Shown piece after piece: positions 3,015 through 38,580 of a stretch of 46,930 bases of DNA. The notes under the pieces were generated by a model, which worked only from the letters and a program-made list of their open reading frames with translations, had not been told where the DNA came from and did not search any database. The DNA is taken from positions 1 to 46,930 of the forward strand of contig PUNW01000392.1 of assembly GCA_003552665.1 (NCBI GenBank). Direction: 5' to 3'. Numbering within the stretch: the first letter of the stretch is position 1; the number at the start of each line of letters is the position of its first letter. A program made the translations under genes and the position numbers. The DNA is from Spirochaetaceae bacterium (GTDB lineage Bacteria; Spirochaetota; Spirochaetia; DSM-27196; SLAA01).

Positions 3015-3024
3015 TGTTCTAACA
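3015..3024. promoter_or_regulatory. TGTTCTAACA box, partner of the 2724-2733 box
   Basis: Reverse complement of the 2724-2733 box, located immediately upstream of or overlapping the DeoR start region. Confidence 0.3.
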
Positions 3025-3050
3025 CACATTTTCGGGGAGCGAATGGAATA

Positions 3051-6359: not shown

Positions 6360-6372
6360 GGGGCGGGGAGCC

Positions 6373-8877: not shown

Positions 8878-8910
8878 AGCGCGACGAAGGGTGTGCAGGG
8901 TATCCGGAGT

Positions 8911-20202: not shown

Positions 20203-20334
20203 ATCAGTCCCCAGTATACACGAACGGCCGGGCATTCCAAACGCGGGTCTCTTAATCGGTGCGGAACGGTAATTCCTTTTGCGTTGACGGATTCCCGGTT
20301 CAGATGGTAACTTTTCACCAGACAGAGTAATACT

Positions 20335-20433
20335 ATCCGTGGGGGAGCCCGGCGGCAGCGGGCTGAGAGGAAGGCTGGAGGCGCTTTCGACCCTACGCAC
20401 CTGATTCGGGTAATGCCGGCGAAGGGAACGGAG
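20335..20433 (+). promoter_or_regulatory. TPP (THI-box) riboswitch aptamer
   Basis: UCCGU...GGGGAGCCC...GCUGAGA...ACCC...ACCUGAU..GGGUAAUGCCGGCGAAGGGAACGGA. The conserved CUGAGA and ACCUGAU/UAAUGCC/GGGAA elements are present. The P1 pairing UCCGU/ACGGA closes the aptamer. Confidence 0.85.
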
Positions 20434-20462
20434 TCTGCATGCAGTTGATTGCTGATTGTGAC

Positions 20463-20485
20463 GCCGCCCGCTGGGCGGCTTTTTT
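20463..20485 (+). terminator. Intrinsic terminator, the riboswitch expression platform
   Basis: GCCGCCC, loop gct, GGCGGC, followed by TTTTTT, about 30 nt after the aptamer and about 80 nt before the ATG at 20567. Confidence 0.8.
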
Positions 20486-20566
20486 CGGCACCCACTTCTC
20501 GGGGCGCCTGGAACGAACATTGATTCATCCCATTTCCTTATCAATTCTTCTCACCTGGAGCTCACG

Positions 20567-22108: not shown

Positions 22109-22157
22109 CAGTTGAGCTATAACGGGTTTGGACATAAGCATGAGGAGGAAGAGCAAT

Positions 22158-22667
22158 ATGAGCGACTTGACCACAACACGTTCATCGACGCGTCATGTAG
22201 CGCAGGCAGTGATCCTGATTGCGCTCGGCGTGGCGCTGGCTCCGTTTACGTCCTTTCCGGTGGGCGTTGCACGCATCAATCCGACGCAGCACTTCGTTAA
22301 CGTGGTGGCGGCGGTGCTGCTTGGGCCTGCGTGGGCCACGGGCATCGCGTTTGTGATCGGCGTAATTCGCAATGCGCTCGGCGTGGGCACGCTTCTGGCG
22401 TTTCCAGGCGGAATGGTCGGAGCACTGGTGGCCGGGCTGGCTTATCGCTTTGTCGGTAGCGTGCGTATCGCCGCCGGCGCCGAGGTGATCGGGAGTGGCA
22501 TTATCGGTGCACTTCTCGGCGCTGCGTTCGTTTCGCCGGTCTTCATGGACAGCCCTGAGCCGCTTTTGGCGTTTGTACCTTCGTTTCTGGCCAGCTCAAT
22601 CATCGGAGCGGTGCTCGGCGTGGCCGCACTGATGCTGCTGCGGCGCGCGGGCGTTGTGCAACTGTAG
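22158..22667 (+). CDS. thiW: ThiW, ECF-transporter S component (predicted thiazole-moiety specificity)
   Basis: INPTQHFVNVVAAVLLGPAWA...LLAFPGGMVGALVAGLAY matches the ThiW family pattern as I recall it. It has about 5 TM helices. The start is set at ATG 22158, which has a GAGGAGG SD 9 nt upstream. The tracked start is 22128. Confidence 0.75.
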   Translation: MSDLTTTRSSTRHVAQAVILIALGVALAPFTSFPVGVARINPTQHFVNVVAAVLLGPAWATGIAFVIGVIRNALGVGTLLAFPGGMVGALVAGLAYRFVGSVRIAAGAEVIGSGIIGALLGAAFVSPVFMDSPEPLLAFVPSFLASSIIGAVLGVAALMLLRRAGVVQL

Positions 22668-24559: not shown

Positions 24560-25258
24560 ATGTACGTGCCGATGGGATCGGCCGGGCGCAGCTCGGCTTC
24601 CGCAATGTTCGACCCGCGCAGCAAGCTCGTGCTCACGGTTTTAGCCATTGCGGGGGTCATTACGCTCCACTCGGCGATTGAGCTCGGCGCGGCTTACGCC
24701 GCGATCGTGCTGCTGGTCCTCGGCATCGGGGAGGGGCGGGCGTACCTGCGGTGGCTGCGAATTCTGTCCGTCATGGTTTTGGTGTGGTTCGCGATCGTCT
24801 GGTTCACGGCCGACACCGTTACCGCGGTTGCCGCCGCGTTGCGGCTTCTGACGCTTACGAGCGTGTTCTTTCTGTTCTTCGCAGTCACCCGTCCGGAGGA
24901 GCTCGCCGATGCCCTCGTACAGTCGGGAATGCCGTACTCGGCAGGGTTTGTTGTGCGAGCGGCGCTACAGTTTGTTCCGGTCGTGTCGCGGACCGCCGGC
25001 GCAGTGTATGACGCGCAACGCGCGCGGGGGATTCCTCTGGACCGTGGAATACGCGCGCTCGCGCATTACCCCGCCTTGTTCGCACCGCTTCTGGTGCAGA
25101 GTTTTCGGCTGGCCGATCACCTCGCCGAAGCGATGGAGTCACGGGGGTTCGGACGCCCCGGGAGAACGCTCCGCCACTCGTATCGTCTGCGCCTGCGAGA
25201 TTGGGCGGTGATGCTCGCCGCCGTAGGCGGGCTTGCAGTGCTTGTCGTAAAATTATGA
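24560..25258 (+). CDS. ECF-transporter T component (EcfT/CbiQ family)
   Basis: The ORF is polytopic. DPRSKLVL at the N-terminus and AQRARG near the C-terminus match the conserved EcfT Ala-Arg-Gly coupling motifs. Confidence 0.8.
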   Translation: MYVPMGSAGRSSASAMFDPRSKLVLTVLAIAGVITLHSAIELGAAYAAIVLLVLGIGEGRAYLRWLRILSVMVLVWFAIVWFTADTVTAVAAALRLLTLTSVFFLFFAVTRPEELADALVQSGMPYSAGFVVRAALQFVPVVSRTAGAVYDAQRARGIPLDRGIRALAHYPALFAPLLVQSFRLADHLAEAMESRGFGRPGRTLRHSYRLRLRDWAVMLAAVGGLAVLVVKL

Positions 25259-25344
25259 GTAACGCAGTCAGTTTCTCTTGACAGCCGCACGAAGTTCTAC
25301 TACTGCTAAGGGTAGCTTGGGTTTTGACCCTACGAGGTCTGGGT

Positions 25345-25767
25345 ATGATTTCAGCGTTCTACGGTCTGCTCGAGGGTATCGGCTTTCGGCAGCCGTTGCA
25401 TCCAATCCCGGTGCGCTTCACGGTCGCGATGGTTGTCGGGGCGCTGGTCTTTGCCTTGATCGCACGGGCGTCGAACCGAACGGCCCTGTATACAACCGCC
25501 CGCCATGTGCTCACCTTCGGGGTCGTGGCGTACGTGCTCACCGCCGTCACCGGCCTCATGGACTGGCTATATTTCTACGGTGGGGCCTGGGGCGACCTTA
25601 TTCAGATCAAGGTGATTCTCGGTGTCGTTCTGCTTCCGCTACTTATCGCTGCGGTGCATTTGAATGTGAAGAACAAGGGCGATTCCACGCTGCAGCTGTT
25701 CGTTTACCTCGGCGCTTCGGTGGTGGTGCTCGTGATTATGTACTACGGCGCGGAGCTTGCACGCTGA
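25345..25767 (+). CDS. DUF2231-like integral membrane protein
   Basis: It has 4 predicted TM helices. LHPIPVRFTVAMVV resembles the HPxxVHFP signature of DUF2231. ATG 25345 has GAGG upstream. Confidence 0.55.
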   Translation: MISAFYGLLEGIGFRQPLHPIPVRFTVAMVVGALVFALIARASNRTALYTTARHVLTFGVVAYVLTAVTGLMDWLYFYGGAWGDLIQIKVILGVVLLPLLIAAVHLNVKNKGDSTLQLFVYLGASVVVLVIMYYGAELAR

Positions 25768-25817
25768 CCGCGGTACCCGCTCACGCGCGCTAACTCCCTT
25801 GGGCCGTGCCGAGAGTT

Positions 25818-25834
25818 CCCGGCGCGCCGCCGGG
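25818..25834. terminator. Perfect 7-bp hairpin between convergent genes
   Basis: CCCGGCG, loop cgc, CGCCGGG, lying directly after the copCD stop (25836-25838) and 50 nt after the DUF2231 stop. No U-tract follows. Confidence 0.35.
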
Positions 25835-25835
25835 C

Positions 25836-27743
25836 TTACGCACCGGCTCCGCGGCGGCCGATATAACGGAGCAGGCCGATAACCGCCGCGATGATGGATA
25901 GCTGGGCAATGAGCAACAGCCACGCCACCCCGGAGGAAAGCAGGTCGGCCCGCTGCACGGGCTCCTCAACCACCTGGAACTCGAACCCGACCCTCGAATC
26001 AAAGGCGCCGGGGCGCTGAACCACCACCTCGGCCTGCCATGCACCGGGCACCGTGAGCGCAACCCGCTCGACAACATAACGGCCCTCACCTACGCCACTG
26101 CCGCTGAACTCGAACTCGATGCTCTCTTCCGGAAGGTTGGCCAGCTGCACCGCGAGATCGTCAGCCTCGATCGGCATGCCCGCGGTATCCTCGAGATCGA
26201 GAATCAGGCGATTTCGACCTACAACGCCGGGTTCCACGGTAAAGGTGATTTCGGCACCTTCGTCCTCGGCCGTGAATATCGTCTCCCGCTCCGGATCCAG
26301 CAGCCCGAGCCGATCTGCGGCACTTCCGGCCGGCTCAGAGTTGGCAAGGAACCCGACTGCCAGAAGAACCACAACAGCGAGCGCCAGTTGGCCTTTGTGA
26401 GCCATCCCGAGCACACGCGGAGCCTTCGCGTCATCGAGCAATCTGGGCCGGAGCCACAGCAACTCCACCGCAGCCACAACGAACAAGGCAGCGACCAGCA
26501 CTACCTTCACTACCAGAGTCTCGCCGTATGGCGTGGCGATTGCGGGAGGGGCCGTTACCTGTATCCAGCTGTTGTAGAGCCCGGACAGAAAGAGGGTTAC
26601 GATGCAAACCAGCGCCAGCGCCCAGAATCTGCGGAACACCGGCGGCAACACGGTCTTGTGGTCGTCCGGGCTCAGGCTTCTGAGCAGGACCGGCACGGCA
26701 AACGCCACGTAAACGACGCCTCCGATCCAGGTGCTGCTCGCGAGCATATGCATGAGGTGGTTCACCAGCCCGGGGGTGCGCACACCGGTGCCAACGGCAA
26801 CATGGCTGGTGAAGCCTATCGCTACGGCGCAGGCGACCGCCAGGAGTAGTGGCAGGGACGCCGAAAACGCACTGTCCCCCCGGGTACTGTCCCGGGCACC
26901 GTCTTGGGCTGTCGCTTGCGAAGCGTGCGCTTCTCGGCCCGCAGTCGCTGCTGAGCGCTCTCGGCTCACCCCCACGGCGAGCACCACCGCCAGGACGAGC
27001 CAGAGCGCCATCCGCCATAGCCAGGAAACGCCCCAGCTGGTTTGGAGCGCAACCTCCACCAAGGGGATGCCGCCCAGTATCTGTGCCTGCCCTACAAGCT
27101 CGACGAACGAGCCTACCAGGAGTATCCCGGCCCCCGCTCCAGCTACCGACAAACGGAGCCTGGAAAGGGGATTACGCAAAGCGGGAAAACGCGTCCCGTT
27201 CCCGAACGCCGACCGGAAGGCGAAGAGGTGCAACAGCAGAGCCCCGATCACGGCTGCGAGGCCCAGATGCGTAAGCCAGCGTCCTGCAGCCTGCACCGGA
27301 GACGCCCGGGGCGGATCATCCGCTCCGGGAGCCACCGCCGCCGCTTCAAGCGGTTCTCCGACTGCAAAGAGGAAGAACCCCTCCAGCGGGTGACCGTCGA
27401 CGGCCGAGACGCTTCGCCAGACGACGGTGTAGGTGCCGTCAGGGAGTTCCTCCTGCAGCGCAGCGATCAGGCGTCGCGGATCATCCGGATCGACCGCGGT
27501 CTCTTCAAGCGCCGCCTCGGTGCCGTCGGCATGCAGCACCTGAATCTGACTGCCGCGCGGTTCGATCGCTTCGCTGAACGTAACCTCGATACGCTCGGGT
27601 GTGGCGTCAAGAGAGGTCTCCGGCTCGGGTTCAGCGCTCACCTTGTAGGCGTGAGCGTCAAGATTCGCCGGAGCCGCGAGCCCAAGCGCCACGACGAGAG
27701 CCAGAAGCCCCGGGGCGCACAGTGGCGTGCACAGTCGCCTCAT
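25836..27743 (-). CDS. CopC-CopD fusion protein with a C-terminal YtkA/FixH-like domain (YcnJ-type)
   Basis: A signal peptide is followed by a mature N-terminal His (LDA/HAYKV). The CopC domain reads ...YTVVWRSVSAVDGHP. A polytopic CopD-like region follows, then a beta-rich extracytoplasmic domain and a terminal TM. The start is set at ATG 27743 (GGAGGTG SD). Confidence 0.8.
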   Translation of the reverse strand: MRRLCTPLCAPGLLALVVALGLAAPANLDAHAYKVSAEPEPETSLDATPERIEVTFSEAIEPRGSQIQVLHADGTEAALEETAVDPDDPRRLIAALQEELPDGTYTVVWRSVSAVDGHPLEGFFLFAVGEPLEAAAVAPGADDPPRASPVQAAGRWLTHLGLAAVIGALLLHLFAFRSAFGNGTRFPALRNPLSRLRLSVAGAGAGILLVGSFVELVGQAQILGGIPLVEVALQTSWGVSWLWRMALWLVLAVVLAVGVSRERSAATAGREAHASQATAQDGARDSTRGDSAFSASLPLLLAVACAVAIGFTSHVAVGTGVRTPGLVNHLMHMLASSTWIGGVVYVAFAVPVLLRSLSPDDHKTVLPPVFRRFWALALVCIVTLFLSGLYNSWIQVTAPPAIATPYGETLVVKVVLVAALFVVAAVELLWLRPRLLDDAKAPRVLGMAHKGQLALAVVVLLAVGFLANSEPAGSAADRLGLLDPERETIFTAEDEGAEITFTVEPGVVGRNRLILDLEDTAGMPIEADDLAVQLANLPEESIEFEFSGSGVGEGRYVVERVALTVPGAWQAEVVVQRPGAFDSRVGFEFQVVEEPVQRADLLSSGVAWLLLIAQLSIIAAVIGLLRYIGRRGAGA

Positions 27744-27751
27744 TGTCTCAT

Positions 27752-28477
27752 TCACCTCCACCGTCTTCGCCACGCTGCGTACGCGGTTGCGGCAGCGCTG
27801 ATAATCGCCACCAGCAGCGCCGCTATAGCAAGAAATCGAATGCCCGCGAGGCGATCTTCCAGCGCGGCAGCGGTTCCCTGCGCCGATTCCGCGGTGCTCA
27901 GCGCGCCGCGAACGGCATCCTCAACCTCGCGCGCTTCCGCCAGACGTTCGGGAAAATGGATCTCGCCCGAAGACACCACATCGTCGAAACCGCCGCCCAG
28001 CGAATACGAGACAAAGGTCTCGTCGAGATCCATCCCTTCAACACTGCCGAAGAACCGGAATTCGTACGCACCCGGACGCGTGGGAATCAGGTCCGCGGTG
28101 TAGTGTCCCGGTTGTCCCCACACGTCACGCAGGTCGAAAACCTCCGATGTTCCCGACTGGTCATGCGTTACTTCAACCTGCATGGTTTCCTGCAGCCCTT
28201 CGACCCCCGCTGCGGTATCGTCATGTCCGTTGTTGTGTCCGGCGTTGTGGCCATGCCCGTGACCATTCTCATCCCCACTGGTGACCCGGAAGTCTATCCC
28301 GTTCTTGTATCCTTCGTATGCAGGTTCCTCCATCCAGCCCACAAGCAGCTCGTACTCGCCGACCTGCCGACTCTCATGGGCACACACTCCTCCTACGGAT
28401 GCACCCAGCATAAGCACGACAAGCGCCGGCATGAGCGGTCCACGGCTGAGCGGCTTTTTCAGTGACGGAACTCTCAT
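27752..28477 (-). CDS. Exported His-rich protein with a C-terminal membrane anchor (putative copper-binding)
   Basis: The start is at ATG 28477 with a GAGGAGG SD. The signal peptide ends ...GGVCA/HES, predicting a mature N-terminal His. A GHGHGHNAGHNNGHDD tract and a C-terminal TM (FLAIAALLVAIISAAATAYAAW) are present. No family is recognised. Confidence 0.6.
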   Translation of the reverse strand: MRVPSLKKPLSRGPLMPALVVLMLGASVGGVCAHESRQVGEYELLVGWMEEPAYEGYKNGIDFRVTSGDENGHGHGHNAGHNNGHDDTAAGVEGLQETMQVEVTHDQSGTSEVFDLRDVWGQPGHYTADLIPTRPGAYEFRFFGSVEGMDLDETFVSYSLGGGFDDVVSSGEIHFPERLAEAREVEDAVRGALSTAESAQGTAAALEDRLAGIRFLAIAALLVAIISAAATAYAAWRRRWR

Positions 28478-28500
28478 GAGTCGCCTCCTCGTTCGGCGCC

Positions 28501-28722
28501 TTACCCGGCGGCCTGATGGTGCTCGGCCTCGGAACCGGTTTGCTCCTCCTCGTCGTCCCTGAATGCAACCAACGCGTGCACGAAGTACAGGACCAACATG
28601 AGGACGACGATCGTGTAGCCGATAATCCTCAGCAGGAAGATCTCGGCCACAAGCCACGCGACCGCCTGTATGCCGAGTATGAGATACGCAAAGGCATGCC
28701 AGTTTTTCGTAAATACATTCAT
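28501..28722 (-). CDS. Small 2-TM membrane protein (73 aa), possible accessory oxidase subunit
   Basis: The internal ATG 28722 has an AGAGGTG SD. The sequence is MNVFTKNWHAFAYLILGIQAVAWLVAEIFLLRIIGYTIVVLMLVLYFVHALVAF plus an acidic tail. The tracked 361-aa ORF upstream of this point is an out-of-frame overlap with the oxidase gene. Confidence 0.5.
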   Translation of the reverse strand: MNVFTKNWHAFAYLILGIQAVAWLVAEIFLLRIIGYTIVVLMLVLYFVHALVAFRDDEEEQTGSEAEHHQAAG

Positions 28723-28742
28723 ATCTGCACCTCTTCTCAGCC

Positions 28743-30401
28743 TCAGCCGATGATCGGAAAGAATCGCAGGATAAGCAGCGAGATCAGCGCGATTCCCCAG
28801 ATCATGAGAACGACCAGTATCCCCGGTACCTGGGCGGCTGTGTACGCCCACTGACTGAGCGGACGAAACCTCCGCACCACGTCCGGCGCGCCGTAGGTTG
28901 TGCCTTTGAACGCGAGCTTCTCGTCTTCCACCGGCTCGCCTTTCAGCGCGGTCATGACCATTACGGTCATGAAGGACACGCCCCCGATAACGGTTATCAG
29001 CATGCCGATGCCGGCAAGGTTCATCCATGGTATCCACGGAGGCATCCCGGCGCCTGCATACGGAGCCATAATATCTGCGAACCGTCGCGGCAGACCGTAG
29101 TATCCGGATACTATGCCTCCCAAACCATAGAACACCATCCCGCCCGCGAACAGGTACGGTGTCGCCAACGCCAGCTTCGGATTCCAGAGCTTGCGCTTTG
29201 TGGCCAGAGGTACCAGGTAATGGGCGATGGCAAAAAAGGCCATCAGGACGGCTCCCGCTACCGGATGGAAATAGCCGGGTACTGCGAAGGAATGGCTCAA
29301 CCACTCGGCGATTCCGGCCGCGATCAGCGATCCGCCGGCCAGAGCGCCGGGTATGGCCATTATGATGAATCCGCAGATGATCCAGGCGAAATCGGGGCTC
29401 CCCCAGGGAAGATTCCTCAGCCACCCGCCTTTCTTGTTGGGATTGCTCTTCAGGACGATGATCCAGGCGGCGAGCCAGGTCGAGAACAGGATGATCGGCG
29501 GGACGTCGACGAGCAGCGCCAACACCGAGCCCGCTGCGCGTTCGGCCGGGGGGATCGCCGGGTCGAGCAGAAAGTGATAGAACCACGTCGGCGGTACGAG
29601 GAACATGTAGGCGCCCCAGACGGTGCGCAAGTACTTCTCACCGCTCGTAGTCGGTGCGTTCCACTGGTAGGCGACGATGAAGGCGGCGATATACATGGCC
29701 ACCAGCGGCACATAGTGAATGATGTGAAAGTAGAAGTGAAACGCGTGGTCCCAGTCGCCGGTGGCTACCGGATCGGCAATGCCGATAAGCGGCCCGAGAC
29801 CGAGGTACATCGTATACAGCACCGCGACGTAGCCGAACAGCCCGAGCACGGCAACAACGCCGGTCGCGAACGCCAGGTGGTTGATATTGCGCCTCGGTCG
29901 TTTGCGCACCGCTGTGGTAAGGTACTGCCCGTAGATGATCAACGAGCCGATCGAAAGAATCGTATATGACAGATGCTGAACCCAGGTGTACTCAAAAGGC
30001 GAGGTAACTGGGTTCGCCATGTAGGTGGTATCGGCGCCCAGCAGGAACGCGATTATGCTCAGTAGCAAGCTGATCGCAATTAGCCAGAAAGCCACCCACC
30101 CGAGCTTGGTCCCACCGGCAAGCTTGGTGTTTGTTTCCAGCAGCCCCAAGCCGAACCCCAGCACCAGCAGGATTGAAAACAGTCCCATGCCGTAGAAGAA
30201 GATGAGCGTCGCGTGCCCGGTCATGAAGCTGTAGAACTGGTCCTGCAGCACACCGCCGAGTGCCGGGATTCGGCTGGCGGCGGCGAAGATCGCGAGCAGG
30301 CCGCCGAGGCCGATTACCAACAGCTGCATATACAGGAAAGCTTTGACCAGTTTGCGGTCCTCAGGGTCAACCCTCTCCCAAAGCTCCTGAACAAACGTCA
30401 T
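28743..30401 (-). CDS. Heme-copper oxidase superfamily subunit I, B-family (ba3)-like, with atypical ligand set
   Basis: 552 aa with about 13 TM helices. It shows colinear blocks against Thermus ba3 CbaA as I recall that sequence. These are TGHATLIFF, FYFHIIHYVPL, WFYHFLLDPAIP, GWLRNLPWGSPDF, VPGYFHPV and GLPRR. A 4-nt overlap joins it to the upstream CuA subunit gene. Confidence 0.85.
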   Translation of the reverse strand: MTFVQELWERVDPEDRKLVKAFLYMQLLVIGLGGLLAIFAAASRIPALGGVLQDQFYSFMTGHATLIFFYGMGLFSILLVLGFGLGLLETNTKLAGGTKLGWVAFWLIAISLLLSIIAFLLGADTTYMANPVTSPFEYTWVQHLSYTILSIGSLIIYGQYLTTAVRKRPRRNINHLAFATGVVAVLGLFGYVAVLYTMYLGLGPLIGIADPVATGDWDHAFHFYFHIIHYVPLVAMYIAAFIVAYQWNAPTTSGEKYLRTVWGAYMFLVPPTWFYHFLLDPAIPPAERAAGSVLALLVDVPPIILFSTWLAAWIIVLKSNPNKKGGWLRNLPWGSPDFAWIICGFIIMAIPGALAGGSLIAAGIAEWLSHSFAVPGYFHPVAGAVLMAFFAIAHYLVPLATKRKLWNPKLALATPYLFAGGMVFYGLGGIVSGYYGLPRRFADIMAPYAGAGMPPWIPWMNLAGIGMLITVIGGVSFMTVMVMTALKGEPVEDEKLAFKGTTYGAPDVVRRFRPLSQWAYTAAQVPGILVVLMIWGIALISLLILRFFPIIG

Positions 30402-30988
30402 ACGTCCTCCCCCTCGTCCTCGTCATCGGCTGCTGCAGCGACTGCCACTTCCGACAAATCCTCCACAACCTTGATCTCCATCGTCATCTCATGGTGCCCG
30501 ATCCCGCAAAAGATGTCGCACACGGCGGTGTAGGTTCCCGGCTCCGTGAACTCGATCAGGAAATGCCCTCCGTGACCCGGCGAGATCGCCCAGGTTCGCG
30601 AGCCTCCCTGCGGTAACTGGAAGCGAATCCCATGACTCACGTCGGTGCTGGCGGCCTGGACAAAGTACTGTTTCCCCGCTTCCAGAACGACACGATCGGG
30701 AACAAAGCGGAAGGACTCTGCAATCAGCGGCAGATGAAACTGGTCAGCGATGTAGTAACCGTCCTCGTCCTGATCAGCAGTATCCATCCATGCTTCAACC
30801 ATATCCCTGCTCACGGCGGCATCGATGCCGTCGGATCTTACAGCGTCGGCGGTATCGATATGTGCCCCACCGGCTTCGGGAACCAATGCCCCGAACGCCG
30901 CCCATATCAAGGCGCACAATAGGGTTGCCATGCCGGAGCTCACCGAGATGACCTGCTGTCGTGTCCCGGTTTGAAATCTTCTGAACAT
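30398..30988 (-). CDS. Oxidase subunit II with CuA-type cupredoxin domain
   Basis: It has one N-terminal TM. DVSHGIRF (His119) and CDIFCGIGHHEM (C157-x3-C161-x3-H165-x2-M168) fit the CuA pattern H...C-x3-C-x3-H-x2-M. The tail is acidic. An AAGGAGGAG SD precedes it. Confidence 0.8.
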   Translation of the reverse strand: MFRRFQTGTRQQVISVSSGMATLLCALIWAAFGALVPEAGGAHIDTADAVRSDGIDAAVSRDMVEAWMDTADQDEDGYYIADQFHLPLIAESFRFVPDRVVLEAGKQYFVQAASTDVSHGIRFQLPQGGSRTWAISPGHGGHFLIEFTEPGTYTAVCDIFCGIGHHEMTMEIKVVEDLSEVAVAAAADDEDEGEDV

Positions 30989-31069
30989 CTGACTCCTCCT
31001 TTGACCGGGTTCCTGCCGGTCTTGATCCGAACGCCTGCCTGCGCGCCGTCATAATTCGGGCGATGCGCG

Positions 31070-32713
31070 TCAATGGTGCGCAGGCGGCCCGTCGGCGCCG
31101 GGGACGTTCCCATCGGCATCCGGTACGTCCAGCCACGCCATCATCCCGGCCTCCATGTGCTCCGGAATGTGACAGTGGATCATCCACCGGCCGGGTTGTT
31201 CGACTTCAACCAGAATGTCCCAGGTCTCGCCCACCGGTACGGTAACGGTGTCCTTCCATGCCAGATTGTCGTTGGGAACGCGGTCCTTGGTGATCACGGC
31301 GAAGCGCTGGCCGTGCAGGTGAATGGGGTGGTGCATCGGGTGATCGGAGTCGGCACGATTGTGTATACGGATGACTATCTCGTCACCGGGCTCGGCCCGC
31401 ATTTCGATATCCAGATTCTCCAGCGCCTGGTCGGGCTCCCGCAGTATCCAACGGATATCCTCGGTCGTGCTCATCGCGTTATGCGCTACGTGGTCGTCGT
31501 GCCACTCGATGCCGTCGATCAGGGCAATCTGGTAGAGCGGACCTCCCATCATCCGCATATGCGCGCCATGGACATCCCAGTCCATCCAGATATCGAGGTC
31601 GAGGGTGTAGTCTGGATCCCGACCGCGTGCGGCGGCCAGTCGCTCGCTGTCGACGAGCTCACGCTCTTCCGGCCAGGATGCCTCCCAGCGCGCTTCGTCA
31701 ACATCGCCGGGTGAAACATCAACCCTTGAGAGCACGCGGCGGCCGAGCGGCGCATCGTGCAGCACCCTGACTTCGCCGGATTCGGTATAGAATACGTCGA
31801 CGCTGAAACGTTCGGCAGGGCCGACCATGACCGAGTCGACTTCCTCGGCTCGTTCGTAGGTGCTCAAATCGCTTGCAACCAGCCGCGTGGGCATGCCCTC
31901 GAACCTCACCTTGTAGGGTCGGGCGCTGGCGACGTTGAGGATGTGATAGCGTACGATCTCGCCCGCCTCGGCTTCGAAGCGGTAGTCCTTCTCGCCGTTG
32001 ACGACCACAGTTCCCCCGAAGCGCCCCATCATCGCCATGTTGGTATGCTCGTGCCCGTACGGGAAGATCCTGCGCTCGCCGGTGCCGTAAGCCATGTCCT
32101 CTTCGAAGACGATGTCGTTGATGATGATCGCTTCTTCGCGATCGTAGGAATCATTGCCGCCGGAGTAGTGTCCTTCCTCCGGGTCGTAGACGATAATCAT
32201 CCCGTACAGGCCGAGATCCTGCTGGCGGTCTTCGCGGATATGCGGGTGATACCAGAAGACGCCTTCGTCCGGGAAGGTTACCTGGTACTCAAAGGTCTCA
32301 CCCGGCTCCACCGGATCCTGGGATACGCCGGCGACCCCGTCGAAGCGAATGTCGTGTCGCAGGCCGTGCCAGTGGATGGTAGTCGGTTCGTTCAGATTGT
32401 TCGTGAAAGGGACGGTGATCTCGGCACCGACCGGGACACGGAGTACAGGGCCGGGTATCGACCCGTTGTAGGCGTACGCGCCGGGGATCATTGTCCCCGC
32501 ACCATCGTAGTTCACCGGATCGGCGCTGATCGCGTATTCGTCGCCGTCTGCAAGATCGACGATCTCAACGTCCGTACGCGCCATCTCATCTGTCTCAATG
32601 ATATCGCGTTCCGGCACGATCTCGGGCTGAGGTGCCCCGAGCAGCACGCTCACCTGAGAGCCGGGTAGGAAGGCAATGACACCGAGAAGAAGCCAGATCG
32701 TCCGTAATCTCAT
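31070..32713 (-). CDS. Multicopper oxidase (three-domain, CueO/laccase-like)
   Basis: Four MCO copper motifs are present: HWHG, WYHPH, HPIHLHG and HCHIPEHMEAGMM. The start is set at ATG 32713 (MRLRTIWLLLGVIAF, GGGAGGA SD). Confidence 0.9.
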   Translation of the reverse strand: MRLRTIWLLLGVIAFLPGSQVSVLLGAPQPEIVPERDIIETDEMARTDVEIVDLADGDEYAISADPVNYDGAGTMIPGAYAYNGSIPGPVLRVPVGAEITVPFTNNLNEPTTIHWHGLRHDIRFDGVAGVSQDPVEPGETFEYQVTFPDEGVFWYHPHIREDRQQDLGLYGMIIVYDPEEGHYSGGNDSYDREEAIIINDIVFEEDMAYGTGERRIFPYGHEHTNMAMMGRFGGTVVVNGEKDYRFEAEAGEIVRYHILNVASARPYKVRFEGMPTRLVASDLSTYERAEEVDSVMVGPAERFSVDVFYTESGEVRVLHDAPLGRRVLSRVDVSPGDVDEARWEASWPEERELVDSERLAAARGRDPDYTLDLDIWMDWDVHGAHMRMMGGPLYQIALIDGIEWHDDHVAHNAMSTTEDIRWILREPDQALENLDIEMRAEPGDEIVIRIHNRADSDHPMHHPIHLHGQRFAVITKDRVPNDNLAWKDTVTVPVGETWDILVEVEQPGRWMIHCHIPEHMEAGMMAWLDVPDADGNVPGADGPPAHH

Positions 32714-32822
32714 CTTACGTCCTCCCTGAAGCCGTCCGGCTCGTTCGGGACGAACGGCCTCGAATCGATCCTTAATCTTCCCTGTTGCGCGTTGTCTCTG
32801 GTAAGGCTTTGGGGTAGCTTTT

Positions 32823-32852
32823 ATTATAAAAACAGTCAACAATTTCAGTCAA
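32823..32852 (-). promoter_or_regulatory. Near-consensus sigma70-type promoter of the MCO/oxidase operon, overlapping a conserved 21-bp element
   Basis: The minus strand reads TTGACT (32852-32847), an 18-nt spacer, then TATAAT (32828-32823). The block 32823-32843 recurs, 20/21 identical, at 40570-40590. Confidence 0.5.
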
Positions 32853-32908
32853 GGAATAAATGGCCGTTTGGAGACATCCTCACCGAAGGAGGATGATGGG
32901 GGAGTGTT

Positions 32909-33556
32909 ATGGTAAAAAGAAGCGTATCAATTCTCGCGATCGTGCTGGCGGGAGCGGCGCTTGCCGCCTGCGAAGAGGCCGATGCGGAGCCGGAGGCGGA
33001 CGTCACTGCCTATGTTCTTGCATACCACTGGGGCTTCGCGCTGTTTGATGAAGAGGGACGGGAGCTCGAGAAGTTGGAGGTCCCGCAGGGCAGTACGGTC
33101 GCACTCGTAGCGGTGAACGACCACGCGTTTGATGCCATCAACGAGCTGCCGCAGCCGGTGGCGAATGCAATGCTACAGCTCGATCTGCATGCGCGTGTGC
33201 GGGAGGACATCGAGCAGGGCCTGATCCGGGATCCGGCCGAGTATGGAATGTCGCTCGAGCGTGAGCTCGCGCAGGTGGAAGAGGACGCGGACGACGATCT
33301 GCACCACGACCACGATCACGGCGAGCATGCACATTACCTCGGCGAGGGGCACGAGTACGCGCACAGAGACACCTACATGGATCACGGGCTTCGAATCCCA
33401 GGCTACGACGTCGAGATCGAGAGAATCCCATTCGACGCGCCTCTGCCGAACTTGACGGTCTTCGATGCCGACCGCGAGGGCACGTTTCAGTTCGAGTGCA
33501 CCCAGAGCTGCGGATTCGGGCATCCGCACCCACGAGAAATGCTCGCGGTGCGGTGA
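32909..33556 (+). CDS. Lipoprotein with cupredoxin-like domain carrying a His/Asp-rich insert
   Basis: It has a lipobox (LAGAALAA-C21). Cupredoxin-like strands surround a DDDLHHDHDHGEHAHYLGEGHEYAHRD insert. The C-terminus has CTQSCGFGHPHPREM (C-x3-C-x3-H...M). A GGGGGAG SD precedes it. Confidence 0.6.
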   Translation: MVKRSVSILAIVLAGAALAACEEADAEPEADVTAYVLAYHWGFALFDEEGRELEKLEVPQGSTVALVAVNDHAFDAINELPQPVANAMLQLDLHARVREDIEQGLIRDPAEYGMSLERELAQVEEDADDDLHHDHDHGEHAHYLGEGHEYAHRDTYMDHGLRIPGYDVEIERIPFDAPLPNLTVFDADREGTFQFECTQSCGFGHPHPREMLAVR

Positions 33557-33602
33557 GAGTTTCAGCCCAACTATGGCCCTACCGGGCCGAAGGAGAACGT
33601 AT

Positions 33603-34460
33603 ATGCCATCTCGAGCAACAAAAGCACTCGCAGTCACGATTGCCGCGCCTTTGATTGTGGGGATAGCGGTGTTCGCGGGAATCCGGCTCGCACGCGTGGT
33701 GGAGCGTGCCGAACAGGGCGAACGCGGCGACGAGCTCGAACAGGTTCAGACCGAGGAGGGACAGCTTGCGCTTCAGGAGCCGCTTCAGCACGGCTTCGCC
33801 GAAGAAATCGATCCGCCGGAGCGCGCTGCCGAGTTCACACTGCAGGACCAGTCGGGTGAGACAATAACATTCAGCGAGGACGCCGGCGACGGGGTTGTGG
33901 TGCTCGGCTTCTGGTTGACCCGCTGCACGCATGGCTGCCCGATCAACGCGTACACGGTGGCGCGGCTGCAACAGCTGCTCGAGGACCGGCAGCCGGAGAT
34001 AGCTTCAGACGTCACGTATCTCGCGGTGAGCATAGATCCGGAGCACGACACCCTCGCGGAACGCCGCGAGTTCGTAGACGAGTACCTCGCGGAGTACGGA
34101 GGAGCGGTCCGCTTCCTCGGCGGTGACCGCGAGGAACTCGAGCCGGTCTGGGACGATTATGCGGTATACGTGGAGACCCGCTCTACCGCTGCCGAGCTCG
34201 AGCGCCTGGAAATGACCGAACAGCAGCTTCTTCAACAGACTGAACAGGAAATGCATGGCGGCCATCATGCGGCGGTGCCCGAGGCGGTCCGGCAGGGCGT
34301 GATCGAGGCCGTTGAGCGTGCCGTTGCCGACGATCATCTGGTGGTTCACAACGATGTGATCTACCTGATCAAGGACGGGCAGTTGCGCTACCGCCTGCTC
34401 GGTCACGACATCGATGCGGAAATCGTCGCGGAGAAAATAGCGCGCCTCGCCGGCGGCTGA
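33603..34460 (+). CDS. SCO1/SenC-family copper chaperone / thiol-disulfide oxidoreductase
   Basis: The start is at ATG 33603 (AAGGAGAA SD). It has an N-terminal TM, a thioredoxin-fold CTHGCP (CxxxC) and the downstream conserved His in VVHNDVIYLI. Confidence 0.8.
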   Translation: MPSRATKALAVTIAAPLIVGIAVFAGIRLARVVERAEQGERGDELEQVQTEEGQLALQEPLQHGFAEEIDPPERAAEFTLQDQSGETITFSEDAGDGVVVLGFWLTRCTHGCPINAYTVARLQQLLEDRQPEIASDVTYLAVSIDPEHDTLAERREFVDEYLAEYGGAVRFLGGDREELEPVWDDYAVYVETRSTAAELERLEMTEQQLLQQTEQEMHGGHHAAVPEAVRQGVIEAVERAVADDHLVVHNDVIYLIKDGQLRYRLLGHDIDAEIVAEKIARLAGG

Positions 34461-34471
34461 AACCACACGGG

Positions 34472-37039
34472 TTACTCCAGATGCCGGGCGGGCGAGCGGA
34501 CGTGGTCGCCGCTTACCGGTGACAGCCCCCGGAACTCATCGCGGTAACGCGCAGCGGCCTGCTCGGCTCGATGTTCCTGTGCGTATGCATAGCGGGAGTA
34601 GTAGTGGCCGGCGTGTACGTATTTGAGTTGCGTGGCGGTAAGCTCGGCAAGAAACGGATCATCTTCGGGAGGCAGCGCCTCACGCACTGTGCGATACAAG
34701 CGTTCCCGTCGATCGCCGGTCAGGAAGCGGGGCTCTCCGGCTGCATGGGCGCGGTCGGTACGCGGGGCGACGTACTCCACCCGCGGCATATCGTCGGTGT
34801 TGAGCGGCGCCGCGGCAAAGACTCCTGATGCCGAGAGGTTTCCGACGTAATGGCGGAGAAGCATCGCTTCGTAGTATTCGGAACTTTCTTCGGGGCCGGA
34901 GAATGCGTCCCGGGCTGCGCCGGCGACGACTGAGGGGTCGAACGGATGATCAGCATCGCGATGGCCTACCAGCGCAACGATCGAGGCCGAGGCATAATGG
35001 TCTCCGCGCCAGATCGTCACCCGCGGGAATACCTCGTTCATCGTTCTCGCGATGAAACCCAGTTCGCGTTCGGAGACCTGGTACAGAGGAATCCACTGGA
35101 CATAGATCCCGCCTTCGCGCAGGCGACGGTGTCCGAGCCGGTAATGCTCGAGCGTGTACAAGTTCCCGGTGCCTTGCTTCCAGGGCGTGAACAGGTCGCT
35201 GACGATTACGTCGTACGTGGCGCGACTGCGCATCAGGCAGTTGCGGCCGTCTTCGGCGTGCACCGTGACACGTTCGTCGCCGAAGAGATGGTTGTTCCAC
35301 CGCGAGAACTGCCGTTCAGCGAGGGTGACCACCTCAGGCAGGATCTCACACACAACCACCTCCTCAACCGGGAAGAATAGGGCCGCTCCGGCGGTGATTC
35401 CGGTCCCCATTCCGAGATAGAAAACCCGGCGGGGGGCAGGGTGCTGCAGCAGGGCAACAGCGGTTTGGTTGCGCTCCGGCTCCAGAGAGCCGGAGCTGCC
35501 GAGCGTGTAGTAGTTGTTGACCCGGAGCACTCGGCTGCCGTCCCGGGTGTCGACAGCGGCAACGGTCGCGTGTGACCCTTCGATCCCTTCCACGAGCACT
35601 TCTCCCGGCCGGACGCCGAACGCGATGTTCCGGAGACCCGGCGGCTCGAACCACAGCAGTAGCGCGACCGCTGCCGCCGCAGCCAGGAGTAGCGCCTTGT
35701 TCCGCTTCAATGGAACCGTCGCGGCAAACAACAGCAGCAGCGCCGGATACATCGCGGCGAGCACGAGAAGGCTTCGCCATACTCCGAGGGTCGGGAGCAG
35801 CACGAAGCCACCCGCGAGTGAGCCGGCAATCGCCCCGAGCGTGTCTGCCGAGATGAGTCCTCCAACCGCCGCCCCGGCCGTAGTGTAACCCCGTTCGAGA
35901 AACCGCATCAGATACGGGAGCACCGAGCCGAGGAGAACTCCCGGAAGGAGCATGACCGCTATTGCTACCCCGGCAACCGAAAGCAGGTACGCCGCGAAGC
36001 CTCGCTCGGGGCTAAGGTACGCGAGCCCGTCGGTGGCGCAGTAGAACAGCCAGGGGCTTGCAGCAGCGGCTGCAGCTGCCCCCATCAGGAGCGCAACCAG
36101 AGTGGTCTCCTCCCGAACGCGCGTGAGCCGCGCGAGCAGGTGCGCCGCCACCGCGCCGGTCGCGAGCGAAACGAGAAAGACCGTCAAGACGAGCGCATAG
36201 GTATACGCTGAGTTCTGCAGAACCTGCGCAAACAGGCGTGTCCAGATGACCTCAATTGCGAGCGTCGCAAAGCCGGAGCAGAACGCAACCGTCCGGATTA
36301 TACGTTGTAAGCGCTGCGGCGATCCGGAGCCATGGCCGGCGGCGGTGCGAAGCGGCTGTGAAGTGACAGCGCCTGTAGCGCCTCCAGTGTCGGCGCTTGC
36401 CAATCTCGGGCGCCCCTTCAGCGCTGCGACGAGGCCTACACCGAGATCGAGCACAATCGCGCTCGCATACGCAGCCTGGATGCCGATTACCGGAGGCAGA
36501 ACGAAGCCGGCGGTGAGCGCTCCGCAGGCGGCACCCGCTGTGTTCACGGCGTAGAGCAGAGTTCCGGTGCGTGCAAGCCTCCCACGGCCGCGGATCAGGT
36601 GCTCGCTCATCAGCGGAAGCGTTCCACCGATCAGGAATGCGGTCGGAAAGAGCAGGGTTGCGGCGATTGCGGCTTTGGTGACGCCGTCGAGCACAGCCGA
36701 ATGGCCCACCTGGGCATAGATTAGCGGATAGACCAGGTAGTAGGCGTCCAGCAGCAGAAAATACCCGAGTGCGGTTGCGGCGACGCCGATCTCAAGCAGC
36801 CCGAACCAACGCAGGGCCGACTGAAAACGCCGAGCGCGAGCTCCCCAGAACCGGGCGCCTGCAGCAAGACCGGCGAAGAATATCGCGATCGAAATGGCGG
36901 CTGCCCGCGCCGTGCTTCCGAACAGCATGCCGAGCTCGCGTACCCACAGCACCTGGTACACCAGGGCCGTGAATCCGGAGAGGAAAAACAGCACCAGAAG
37001 CACGGTGTGTTTCTGTGCCGCGCTGCGCTTCGATCTCAT
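34472..37039 (-). CDS. Fused polytopic-membrane / spermidine-synthase-like (class I methyltransferase-fold) protein
   Basis: 855 aa. The N-terminal ~480 aa are polytopic (FFLSGFTALVYQVLWVRELGMLFG). A spermidine-synthase-like domain follows (VFYLGMGTGITAGAAL...YDVIVSDLF). This is the architecture usually annotated as fused MFS/spermidine synthase. Confidence 0.75.
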   Translation of the reverse strand: MRSKRSAAQKHTVLLVLFFLSGFTALVYQVLWVRELGMLFGSTARAAAISIAIFFAGLAAGARFWGARARRFQSALRWFGLLEIGVAATALGYFLLLDAYYLVYPLIYAQVGHSAVLDGVTKAAIAATLLFPTAFLIGGTLPLMSEHLIRGRGRLARTGTLLYAVNTAGAACGALTAGFVLPPVIGIQAAYASAIVLDLGVGLVAALKGRPRLASADTGGATGAVTSQPLRTAAGHGSGSPQRLQRIIRTVAFCSGFATLAIEVIWTRLFAQVLQNSAYTYALVLTVFLVSLATGAVAAHLLARLTRVREETTLVALLMGAAAAAAASPWLFYCATDGLAYLSPERGFAAYLLSVAGVAIAVMLLPGVLLGSVLPYLMRFLERGYTTAGAAVGGLISADTLGAIAGSLAGGFVLLPTLGVWRSLLVLAAMYPALLLLFAATVPLKRNKALLLAAAAAVALLLWFEPPGLRNIAFGVRPGEVLVEGIEGSHATVAAVDTRDGSRVLRVNNYYTLGSSGSLEPERNQTAVALLQHPAPRRVFYLGMGTGITAGAALFFPVEEVVVCEILPEVVTLAERQFSRWNNHLFGDERVTVHAEDGRNCLMRSRATYDVIVSDLFTPWKQGTGNLYTLEHYRLGHRRLREGGIYVQWIPLYQVSERELGFIARTMNEVFPRVTIWRGDHYASASIVALVGHRDADHPFDPSVVAGAARDAFSGPEESSEYYEAMLLRHYVGNLSASGVFAAAPLNTDDMPRVEYVAPRTDRAHAAGEPRFLTGDRRERLYRTVREALPPEDDPFLAELTATQLKYVHAGHYYSRYAYAQEHRAEQAAARYRDEFRGLSPVSGDHVRSPARHLE

Positions 37040-37060
37040 AAGCGTGTGAGAAGAGCGTCT

Positions 37061-38023
37061 TCACCGTAGCGCGAGCCCTATTGCTACGAACACCAGCGGG
37101 AGGTACGTGACCGAAGCGCGTAACAGAAGGCGGGCGTGACGCCTGTCGTAGTGCCTGCAGAGCGAGATAGCCCGGTACGCGAAGCCGATCCAGAGGGCGG
37201 TCGCCGGCAGGGCGTACCAGGGATGTACGAGCTCCAGCGGAACCGGAAGCAGAGAAGCGAGGAGAGTCATTACCGACCAGGCAAGGATCTGCCGCCGCAC
37301 CCGTTGTCCTCCCAGGTCAATGACCGGCAACACCTTCAGATCGGCTCGGCGGTAGTCGCTGAGATTCTTGAGCTGTACTGAATAGAAGTGCGGAAACTGC
37401 CAGGCGAACACGATCGCCGCCAGGGCCCACGCCTCGGCGGACGGCGTCCCGGTCGCCGCGGTCCAACCCACCAGGGGCGGCATTGCCCCGGCAAAGGCTC
37501 CAATTGTGGTGTGTGCAGGGGTTCGCCGTTTGAGGGGGGTATACAGTCCCAGGTATATGATGAGGTTGGCAACCGCGAATACGCCGCACAGAACCCCTAC
37601 CCACAGCGTGAGAATGCCTGTTCCGATCGCCGAAAAGCAGATACCGAACGTAAGTGCGATTTGCGGCTGCATGCGTCCTGACGGCAGCGGTCTGCCGGCG
37701 GTTCGCGGCATCAAGCGGTCGATATCGCGTTCAAGATAGTGGTTCAACGCAAACATGCCGGCGGCGAAAGCCGATACGCCCACTGCAAGCACCACCAAAC
37801 CAAGCCAACCACCCCCCCCGGGCATACGCGACGCTACGCTCCCCGGCCCGGCCTCGATGGTGTCACCGACCCGTGCAGCGATCAGATATGTTCCCAGGGT
37901 AACGAGCAACAGGAGTGTCGCAAGGCGTGGCTTCGTCAGCTCACCGAACGTGGCGAGCGTACGAACGATCGGGACGGTGGTGTCGTCGACCGCACGTGGT
38001 GTCGATCCGATCGTCTCAGACAT
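37061..38023 (-). CDS. ctaB: Protoheme IX farnesyltransferase (heme O synthase)
   Basis: It is a UbiA-family polytopic protein. ELTKPRLATLLLLVT..., ...NHYLERDIDRLMPRTAGRPLPSG... and ...YSVQL...DY... are typical of CtaB/CyoE. Confidence 0.85.
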   Translation of the reverse strand: MSETIGSTPRAVDDTTVPIVRTLATFGELTKPRLATLLLLVTLGTYLIAARVGDTIEAGPGSVASRMPGGGGWLGLVVLAVGVSAFAAGMFALNHYLERDIDRLMPRTAGRPLPSGRMQPQIALTFGICFSAIGTGILTLWVGVLCGVFAVANLIIYLGLYTPLKRRTPAHTTIGAFAGAMPPLVGWTAATGTPSAEAWALAAIVFAWQFPHFYSVQLKNLSDYRRADLKVLPVIDLGGQRVRRQILAWSVMTLLASLLPVPLELVHPWYALPATALWIGFAYRAISLCRHYDRRHARLLLRASVTYLPLVFVAIGLALR

Positions 38024-38037
38024 CTCGCCATCAACCC

Positions 38038-38580
38038 CTAGAACTCCACATCGAACGACGTTCGGGAATCGGTGCCGTGGTCCGAACTGAGATCGTTTGA
38101 CGTTCCGTAAGCGAGCATGAATGTGTGCGTCTCACCGGGGTTGAGAGGATTGTCATACTCATCGCCCGAATCAAGCGGCCGGCGGAAGTGGAGCATCGTT
38201 CCTCCGTCGGTCAGTTCGCCGGCAATGAGCTCGACGTCATCGGTACCCCCGAGCTCGGTATCCGGCCGGTGTGTGGTCAGCTGATCGCCGTAGTGGTCTT
38301 CGATTACGACGTTGCCGTCGTCTTCCACATAGCCGATTATGATGTCGGCACCGCGCATTGTGGCCTCCGGATCAAACCCGACACCGACCCAACCTTGCTC
38401 GGGCGAGGTCACGATGAACTCGGCCATGTCACCGTCCACACGCCATTCCAGCGTCATGTCGATCGCTTCGACGCGCTTGAAGCCCTCATCGGTCTCGGTG
38501 ACCTCCGGCGGCGGGTCGCACGCTGCCACAGCGGCTATGACCGCCGCGAGTAACATAGCTCGGCGCAGGGTAATTCGCAT
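38038..38580 (-). CDS. DOMON-domain lipoprotein (putative extracytoplasmic heme- or ligand-binding)
   Basis: It has a lipobox (AAVAA-C) and an AAGGAGG SD. The beta-sandwich pattern LEWRVDGD...FIVTSP.QGWVGVGF...GADIIIGYV... is typical of DOMON domains. Confidence 0.65.
   Translation of the reverse strand: MRITLRRAMLLAAVIAAVAACDPPPEVTETDEGFKRVEAIDMTLEWRVDGDMAEFIVTSPEQGWVGVGFDPEATMRGADIIIGYVEDDGNVVIEDHYGDQLTTHRPDTELGGTDDVELIAGELTDGGTMLHFRRPLDSGDEYDNPLNPGETHTFMLAYGTSNDLSSDHGTDSRTSFDVEF

Follow-up and report, generated by a model that had tools for sequence, protein, structure and literature searches.

What could bring a multicopper oxidase (MCO), a heme-copper oxidase (HCO) and a CopC-CopD fusion protein together in a single bacterial transcription unit? 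The question is raised by a run of six genes on the minus strand of contig PUNW01000392.1 from a Spirochaetaceae bacterium (GCA_003552665.1), a stretch of 46,930 nt that was analysed as a whole and is called the window below. We consider it probable, at roughly 55%, that these genes form an operon co-expressing two outward-facing copper oxidoreductases together with their own copper-provisioning pair. This corresponds to the first of two hypotheses in an earlier reading of the same DNA (the original prediction), namely a module obtaining the copper that its own oxidase needs, which came out as the best-supported reading through a parallel with YcnI and YcnJ of Bacillus subtilis and through the clustering of the genes in relatives.

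Anatomy of the six-gene cluster

The six minus-strand open reading frames (ORFs) run from 32713 to 25836, and the same starts are found in a public protein collection. In order, they encode the MCO, subunits II and I of the HCO, a small transmembrane (TM) protein, an exported histidine-containing protein (the His-protein) and the CopC-CopD fusion (CopCD), giving the arrangement MCO-II-I-small-His-CopCD. The junctions measure 81, -4, 20, 23 and 8 nt, identical to the figures reported originally, and a GGAGG-like Shine-Dalgarno sequence lies 5-10 nt upstream of each start codon (6/6), as had been claimed. The near-consensus promoter of the original prediction was also recovered. A consensus scan identified a sigma70-like site at 32823..32852 (-), 5' of the MCO gene, which reads TTGACT-18 nt-TATAAT (11/12 matches). 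With ~110 nt between it and the MCO start, it falls inside a 195-nt divergent intergenic region shared with the cupredoxin and Sco genes described below, and is the sole strong sigma70-like site in positions 25000-38500, the region covered by our signal scans. Promoter-like sites number 2 in this region vs 3.6 expected by shuffling, and the weight of the promoter rests on its quality and position, not on the site count. Within its -35 region (32833-32852, minus strand) the heptamer TTGACTG occurs twice as a direct repeat with 13-nt spacing, which could represent two overlapping -35 boxes or a response-regulator binding site.

No terminator-like hairpins were found in any of the five junctions, and the scan gave no credible internal terminator. 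Minus-strand matches at 26507 and 29252 are weak stems within coding sequence, and the total for the scanned region (9) is near the shuffled expectation (8.3). Considering this anatomy, we strongly infer that the six genes are co-transcribed as one operon. A compositional test for a recently inserted foreign CopCD module gave no signal: GC content at third codon positions is uniform across the genes (0.65-0.77). In addition, a 15-kb contig assembled separately from soda-lake sediment reads (L090; Logan SRR490150, also JGI 3300000477) is 99.92% identical over 13.8 kb and has the same gene order; the arrangement is therefore not an assembly chimera.

The first gene (31070..32713, (-)) encodes a three-domain MCO of 547 aa (Pfam Cu-oxidase_3, Cu-oxidase and Cu-oxidase_2; PF07732, PF00394, PF07731). 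Its copper motifs are intact, with HWH at 114, HPH at 156, HxxHLH at 462-467 and HCHIPEHMEAGM at 513 (HCHxxxHxxxxM), and it keeps all eight histidines of the trinuclear centre as well as the type-1 site. The signal is Sec-type, the N-terminus (MRLRTIWLLLG) being without a twin-arginine motif. With this export signal and both copper sites, the MCO would be the first of the two copper oxidoreductases. Its closest relatives in the PDB are bacterial laccase-like or cuprous oxidases (6vow, 6vox, 4f7k, Thermus 2xu9, CueO). Assignment to the CopA/PcoA or CueO cuprous oxidases was rejected, as the twin-arginine translocation (Tat) signal is missing and the scores are below the NCBIfam equivalog cut-offs (145 vs 479 bits for CopA/PcoA, TIGR01480; 139 vs 525 bits for CueO, NF008205). 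Separately, we observed that MCOs 41-45% identical to this protein (P0294, P0297, P0314, P0319, P0323, P0324, P0348) are annotated in Woesearchaeota and Nanoarchaeota (DPANN) genomes.

Active site and family of the heme-copper oxidase

Subunit I (552 aa; 28743..30401, (-)) matches Pfam COX1 (PF00115) over profile positions 1-435 with 118.7 bits (cut-off 34.8; 4e-34). The nearest solved structure is the ba3 oxidase of Thermus thermophilus (PDB 1EHK/1XME), which aligns end to end at low identity (E ~1e-9). In the HMMER alignment to ba3, the low-spin heme ligands are kept (ba3 H72/H386, here H63/H379), as are the CuB histidine with its cross-link partner (H233/Y237, here H226/Y230), a second CuB ligand (H283, here H276) and the propionate-binding arginine pair (R439/R440). 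Tyrosine takes the place of two ligands: Y275 stands for H282, which binds CuB in ba3, and Y377 for H384, the high-spin heme's proximal ligand. This leaves 4/6 of the canonical histidine ligands (H63, H379, H226, H276); helix VII reads YH and helix X Y-F-H, where the B-family canon is HH and H-x-H. Both tyrosines are invariant in 16 full-length family members, and H229, an additional histidine before the helix-VI tyrosine, is invariant in the family. The K-path positions S309, T312 and Y248 of ba3 are apparently Pro, Leu and Phe, judged from the pairwise ba3 alignment alone. To our knowledge, all characterised HCOs and NO reductases (NORs) ligate the catalytic heme through a proximal histidine.

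The clade can be recognised by a triple signature, FH-x2-HY-x-P / PPT-x2-YH / P[GA]Y-x-H, and it is rare. A word-index search of 5.8 billion clusters gave 5 word-sharing relatives and only four proteins with the two-tyrosine pattern, while an exhaustive HMMER search of 1.84 billion representatives gave 59 proteins at E up to 1e-30. The triple signature is present in ~35 of the best 150 HCO representatives of the latter search, and canonical families, including B-family representatives with GHP[ILV]VY/HH/GHFH, rank below the two-tyrosine clade. Scanning for subunit I yielded 266 matching stretches in metagenomes and two loci only in a genome collection. For comparison of neighbourhoods, we used 86 loci (L001-L086), whose subunit I genes were clustered to 20 lineage groups (single linkage, 70% identity) and whose six-frame ORFs were searched by phmmer. 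The two-tyrosine motifs are present in the called subunit I at 80/82 loci; L056 is without any of the three motifs and L006 without the helix-X motif. The two ligand substitutions and the rarity of the clade rule out a housekeeping ba3 oxidase, the outcome that would have undone the original prediction's view of this subunit as atypical. NOR-type families (eNOR, sNOR, gNOR, nNOR, NOD) were rejected as well, since these are without the helix-VI tyrosine and keep the proximal histidine, unlike subunit I.

Atypical as it is, the subunit is not wholly unknown. The J family of HCOs was described as having two tyrosines in place of the histidines of the active-site metal and the high-spin heme, a ligand change predicted to lower the heme potential (bioRxiv 10.1101/592808; Murali, Hemp, Orphan, Bisk, 2019). 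With Y275 and Y377, the window's subunit I carries exactly these replacements and matches the J family, being filed as J-family-like by the published signature. Our literature search found no paper on the J family other than bioRxiv 10.1101/592808, which covers it in one sentence, and no functional or genomic-context data. A further HCO-like group of ~470-490 aa was seen among our search results (P0060, P0075, P0079, P0088, P0098, P0108, P0111, P0115, P0135), which has FY, VY, IY or LY as its helix-VII pair and H-Y-H in helix X.

Subunit II (196 aa; 30398..30988, (-)) is membrane-anchored, and its stop overlaps the start of subunit I by 4 nt. Its Pfam COX2 match is marginal (22.4 bits vs a 22-bit cutoff), it also matches CoxB (TIGR02866, 6e-12), and its cupredoxin domain carries the full CuA ligand set (DVSHG ... 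CDIFCGIGHHEM, that is, C-x3-C-x3-H-x2-M and the upstream His). Wherever a subunit II partner was found among the J-family lineage groups, it carries the CuA motif (16/16). Many J-family subunit IIs (L007, L008, L062 and others) bear long His/Glu-rich C-terminal tails, for example HKHEEGVPEHKHEEDEHHEEEKGKDHQEEKEDHHHDEG, which suggest metal binding; the window's own tail is acidic, unlike these. Directly after subunit I lies the small subunit (73 aa, two predicted TM helices; 28501..28722, (-)). No Pfam family was found for it, and its homologues stand directly 3' of subunit I at 67% identity in L004/L005, 48% in L095 and 40% in L001. At many other J-family loci, the corresponding place is taken by short ORFs of different clusters (c3, c4).

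CuA subunit II, J-family subunit I and the two-helix subunit would form a three-subunit membrane complex. Because the ligands are conserved, single electrons from a periplasmic donor would enter at CuA and pass through the bis-His low-spin heme to the acceptor site, which would consist of a heme bound by the tyrosinate of Y377 and a metal site made up of H226(-Y230), H229, Y275 and H276. In catalase the proximal heme ligand is likewise a tyrosinate, and such ligation is expected to lower the heme potential, making peroxide chemistry more favourable. The J family retains the His-Tyr pair that is characteristic of O2 reductases. As the probable substrate we rank O2 first, and H2O2 second as a serious contender in view of the lower heme potential expected from tyrosinate. 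A bolder proposal is that the J-family enzyme is a catalytically new HCO in which a tyrosinate-ligated high-spin heme, placed beside a 3-His/1-Tyr metal site and fed by CuA, acts in concert with the MCO, either reducing, in respiration, a partially reduced oxygen species (for instance H2O2) or serving as a membrane Cu(I):acceptor oxidoreductase. Such concerted action would explain both the persistent linkage of the two genes and the recurrence of the family in copper-homeostasis loci; we regard this proposal as unlikely and put it forward tentatively.

Putative copper capture and clustering in relatives

The last two genes encode the putative copper-provisioning pair. Homologue alignment and an AlphaFold2 model (pLDDT 79.8) indicate that the His-protein (241 aa; 27752..28477, (-)) is an exported, membrane-tethered protein, in which a beta-sandwich leads into a long C-terminal helix (182-240) with the membrane anchor at its end. 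It has at least 289 homologues, and no Pfam family was found for it or its 120 listed homologues. The closest Foldseek matches are to copper proteins of the periplasm (FetP/P19/FtrA, CopC and CrdA), with DUF4426 also within the top 50. The original description as a His-rich exported protein was right on export and on the presence of a His-rich loop, but this His/Gly/Asn-rich loop (68-87) is variable and disordered; it is His34 that is invariant instead, which is also the predicted mature N-terminus (A33/H34-E35).

CopCD (635 aa; 25836..27743, (-)) is a YcnJ-type fusion (Pfam CopC 72.6 bits, CopD 59 bits; NCBIfam CopD/CopC). Its CopC domain starts at His31 after the signal peptide and contains the D-G-H motif, and the top PDB match of this domain is its counterpart in B. 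subtilis YcnJ (9c14, E 1.7e-10), with chain residue 1 aligned to His31. The C-terminus has a putative FixH/YtkA-like beta-sandwich region at the position of YcnJ's YtkA, followed by a final TM helix. In two unrelated genomes (L087, L089) and in a relative of the window (L093), but not in L092, a gene for a His-protein homologue immediately precedes one for a CopC-CopD protein; from this recurrent adjacency, the two are an autonomous gene pair. The CopC-CopD proteins of L087 (7484-9763) and L089 (6752-8989), encoded directly 3' of the His-protein homologues, are fused to C-terminal c-type cytochrome domains, which hints at a redox step, perhaps Cu(II) reduction, in this importer family. L092 has tandem His-protein paralogues (6001-6789 and 6979-7713; 48% and 47% identity to the window's) with no CopCD nearby.

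In B. subtilis, YcnJ (CopC-CopD-YtkA) and the membrane-tethered YcnI exchange Cu(II), and both are needed for the activity of the heme-copper oxidases Qox and Cta under copper starvation (PMC12362106, PMC13344008). The His-protein has a YcnI-like anatomy, with a signal peptide, a mature N-terminal histidine, a C-terminal TM anchor and an adjacent CopC-CopD gene, and may work like YcnI, as a functional analogy only. By this analogy, which is also what suggests an inward direction of copper flow, the His-protein and CopCD would capture Cu(II) at the outer face and import it, and the imported copper would be returned for insertion into the oxidase and MCO.

If the six genes serve a common purpose, they should be found together elsewhere. 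Across J-family loci, the stable core is subunit II, then subunit I, then a small TM ORF and/or a UbiA prenyltransferase. Three groups have a co-oriented MCO gene within 4 kb: the window's own clade, L037/L038 (with CusF-like genes) and L075. Other copper-homeostasis neighbours are Cu-ATPases (L025, L026, L036, L075), Metal_resist (L005, L038) and a CusBA-like resistance-nodulation-division pump (L048); copper-homeostasis neighbours are present in ~3/14 adequately sampled lineages. A Pfam scan of 135 neighbour-cluster representatives gave low counts per family and is where the CusBA-like pump was spotted. L038 has two pairs of MCO and CusF-like genes (914-3044, 7483-9477) that flank the J-family oxidase genes, with a Metal_resist-like ORF after the second pair.

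Rearranged versions of the cluster in L093, L094 and L095 emerged from look-ups of His-protein and MCO homologues, not from the search centred on subunit I. L093 has the MCO gene divergent from His-CopCD, the latter followed by cupredoxin, DUF2231, UbiA and Sco genes (identities to the window: MCO 77%, His-protein 55%, CopCD 54%, cupredoxin 70%, DUF2231 64%, UbiA 68%, Sco 47.5%). Its MCO gene runs off the contig, which at this end overlaps L004/L005 at their start (88% nucleotide identity); the order in L004/L005 is MCO-II-I-small-DOMON-Metal_resist. L094, with a cupredoxin gene divergent from MCO-II-I, reproduces the window's upstream half (MCO 84%, subunit I 91%), and L095 has I-small-MCO-cupredoxin on one strand (subunit I 69%, MCO 63%). 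The MCO, the oxidase genes, His-protein/CopCD, the cupredoxin lipoprotein, Sco and heme O synthase are thus clustered across relatives in three further arrangements. On conservation of synteny, which the original prediction had proposed as a check, the result is divided: the exact six-gene order is not conserved, being confined to one population, but the gene set is clustered in L093, L094, L004/L005 and L095. As this clustering is kept in at least four diverged relatives (63-91% protein and ~75% nucleotide identity) through several rearrangements, it argues for functional coupling.

The same data bear on whether three independent modules (MCO, oxidase and copper importer) merely share a promoter by fortuitous packing, without functional coupling. 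The His-protein/CopCD pair and the MCO family are each widespread alone, and the six-gene order is unique to one population, as such packing would have it. However, neutral drift should disperse a gene set that we find clustered in the diverged relatives, and all of the products are copper proteins or copper/heme assembly factors. We consider this explanation quite improbable.

Gene adjacency also speaks to the second hypothesis of the original prediction, an extracytoplasmic oxidation chain in which the MCO would oxidise a periplasmic metal or organic substrate and pass the electrons through CuA to the membrane oxidase. MCO and CuA-oxidase genes adjoin in three gene orders of the window's clade and in two other J-family lineages, and possible carriers, in the form of small cupredoxins or c-type cytochromes, are often encoded at J-family loci. 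Such a relay is nevertheless unlikely because the MCO has a complete O2-reducing centre: with its eight trinuclear histidines and type-1 site it can reduce O2 itself, with neither a need nor a known route for electron export. Furthermore, MCO homologues of 40-52% identity, some of them annotated as DPANN archaea, work without an oxidase, including those of ~50% identity in the copper-resistance loci described next, and the operon has no dedicated carrier gene. Of the explanations weighed here, we find the oxidation chain the least credible, and hold it to be most improbable.

A stronger competitor is a copper-stress detoxification island, in which a cop/pco-type unit would have taken on the J-family oxidase to serve as an electron sink or to consume Cu(I) or peroxide. 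MCO, CopC and CopD together are the canonical copABCD/pcoABCD layout (PMC7558416), and the top NCBIfam match of the window's MCO, although below the cut-off, is the copper-resistance CopA subfamily. Its ~50%-identical homologues in L096 and L097 stand in ordinary copper-resistance loci without an oxidase, adjoining a Cu-ATPase, CopZ/HMA, a two-component system and CueP, and other J-family oxidase genes lie near the MCO-CusF pairs, Cu-ATPases, Metal_resist genes and CusBA-like pump listed above. On the other hand, the window lacks CopB, CusF, an efflux ATPase and a copper sensor, and the neighbouring genes that it does have are for assembly (Sco, heme O synthase and hemA). Experiments have linked fusions of the YcnJ type, together with a YcnI-like partner, to uptake under starvation, and only ~3/14 of the adequately sampled J-family lineages have copper-homeostasis neighbours at all. 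In addition, a P1B-ATPase encoded beside an oxidase may just as well be a CcoI-type assembly factor. We consider detoxification possible, if on balance unlikely; it and the supply model are not mutually exclusive.

For the supply model itself, several points weigh on the other side. Co-transcription is read from gene anatomy, and the strict six-gene order is found in one population only, as L090 (99.92% identical) is not independent. CopCD and the His-protein were found by tblastn in 0/86 of the loci L001-L086, where the flanks centred on subunit I are short and many contigs are short. A copper-responsive regulator or operator was sought in the window, giving only the TTGACTG direct repeat, with no regulator gene adjacent. 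Membership of the His-protein in DUF1775/YcnI found no support, as there is no Pfam match and YcnI is absent from the Foldseek top 50. Similarly, CopCD residues 493-578 match FixH with 20 bits, below the 23-bit cut-off, and have no YtkA match. Finally, the MCO and CopCD proteins of Pseudomonas and E. coli serve copper resistance, not acquisition (PMC7558416).

Around the operon lie genes that would make up an accompanying assembly tool-kit for the two oxidoreductases: those for Sco, the cupredoxin lipoprotein, heme O synthase and a DOMON-domain protein. The cupredoxin lipoprotein (215 aa; 32909..33556, (+)) is encoded divergently from the operon and matches CoxB weakly. It has a CuA-like C-x3-C-x3-H motif without Met at +3 (FECTQSCGFGHPHPREM) and a His/Asp-rich insert (DDDLHHDHDHGEHAHYLGEGHEYAH), and besides the L093 orthologue, L095 encodes one of 50% identity and L094 an N-terminal fragment. 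Its possible roles are those of a chaperone in CuA assembly or of an electron carrier. Next to it, 3' and co-oriented, is the gene for a Sco1/SenC copper chaperone with a CxxxC thioredoxin fold (33603..34460, (+); Pfam SCO1-SenC 58 bits), for which the 285-aa call was taken from L090. A UbiA-family prenyltransferase, probably a heme O synthase, is encoded at 37061..38023 (-) (Pfam UbiA 182.8 bits). This is the commonest neighbour of J-family subunit I genes (7/20 lineage groups), which speaks for the hemes being kept in the J family. The DOMON-domain protein (38038..38580, (-); Pfam DOMON 84 bits, phmmer 7e-97) has an orthologue inside the oxidase operon of L004/L005, right 3' of the small subunit (L005 3120-3674), and hemA is also among the window neighbours of the oxidase cluster. 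At the other end, convergent with CopCD, is a DUF2231 membrane protein (25324..25767, (+); Pfam DUF2231 52.6 bits), which may belong to the copper module, as its L093 orthologue (5503-5925) lies beside the CopCD and cupredoxin genes.

Two other features of the window were recorded. An 855-aa fused MFS/spermidine-synthase-like protein (NF037959) is encoded between the heme O synthase and Sco/cupredoxin genes (34472-37039, (-)), and is also present in L090. Further away, a thiamine pyrophosphate (TPP) riboswitch (RF00059, 71.1 bits; 20331-20444, (+)) precedes a fused thiE/thiM gene (20567-22108) and thiW (22128-22667), and overlaps the 3' end of a phospholipase D-like gene on the opposite strand (18739-20544).

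Comparison with known systems

Our reading of the locus draws most on B. subtilis ycnKJI. Common to both systems are a CopC-CopD fusion, in which CopC is N-terminal and of the His-brace type, and a tethered beta-sandwich partner with a mature N-terminal histidine. They differ in that the window's partner is not a DUF1775 protein and folds nearest to FetP/P19/CopC, that there is no YcnK-like repressor, and that a YtkA domain was undetected in the window's CopCD. Moreover, ycnKJI stands alone, whereas the window's pair sits in an operon of its presumed client enzymes. The locus would extend the B. subtilis finding on CopC-CopD and oxidase metallation to an importer and its clients in a single operon, and such a compact six-gene cassette could lend itself to heterologous expression, the genes for its copper supply included.

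A second comparison is with the copABCD/pcoABCDE operons of Pseudomonas syringae and E. coli plasmids, in which an MCO, CopC and CopD are also joined in one unit, and in which CopD has been proposed to bring in the copper that the MCO uses (PMC7558416). The window has no CopB/PcoB, PcoE or two-component regulator, its CopC and CopD are fused, and its MCO has a Sec-type rather than a Tat-type signal. Most distinctively, a complete CuA/heme-copper oxidase complex is placed between the MCO and CopCD. The original prediction knew of no described transcription unit combining an MCO, a CuA/subunit I oxidase and CopCD, and we likewise found none in the literature. Its suggestion of novelty applies to the intervening oxidase complex, while the joining of MCO and CopCD is already classical (PMC7558416).

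The oxidase itself resembles T. thermophilus ba3 in its CuA subunit II, extra small subunit, low-spin heme ligands, helix-VI His-x3-Tyr and propionate-binding arginine pair, and differs from it in the tyrosines at H282 and H384 and in the additional invariant H229. With the proximal heme ligand and one CuB ligand changed to tyrosine, yet CuA, the low-spin heme and the His-Tyr pair kept, it tests the rules of oxygen-reduction chemistry. gNOR was presented as the first HCO with an active-site histidine replaced (Murali et al. 2024, PMC11214002). Like gNOR and the other B-family-derived NORs (PMC11214002), the window's enzyme is related to the B family, has a cupredoxin subunit II and has a remodelled active site; unlike them, it keeps the helix-VI tyrosine, a different CuB histidine is replaced, by tyrosine and not aspartate, and the proximal ligand is replaced too. 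There are also no nir or nos genes near the window's oxidase.

The locus supplies a first genomic context for the J family, whose association with genes for an MCO, the CopCD pair, heme O synthase and copper homeostasis is newly observed here. In the window's clade, the tie of the J-family oxidase to the MCO and to a YcnI/YcnJ-like copper-capture pair is persistent. Set against these systems, the operon is a new combination of known module types, and its oxidase belongs to a named, uncharacterised family with a remarkable ligand set.

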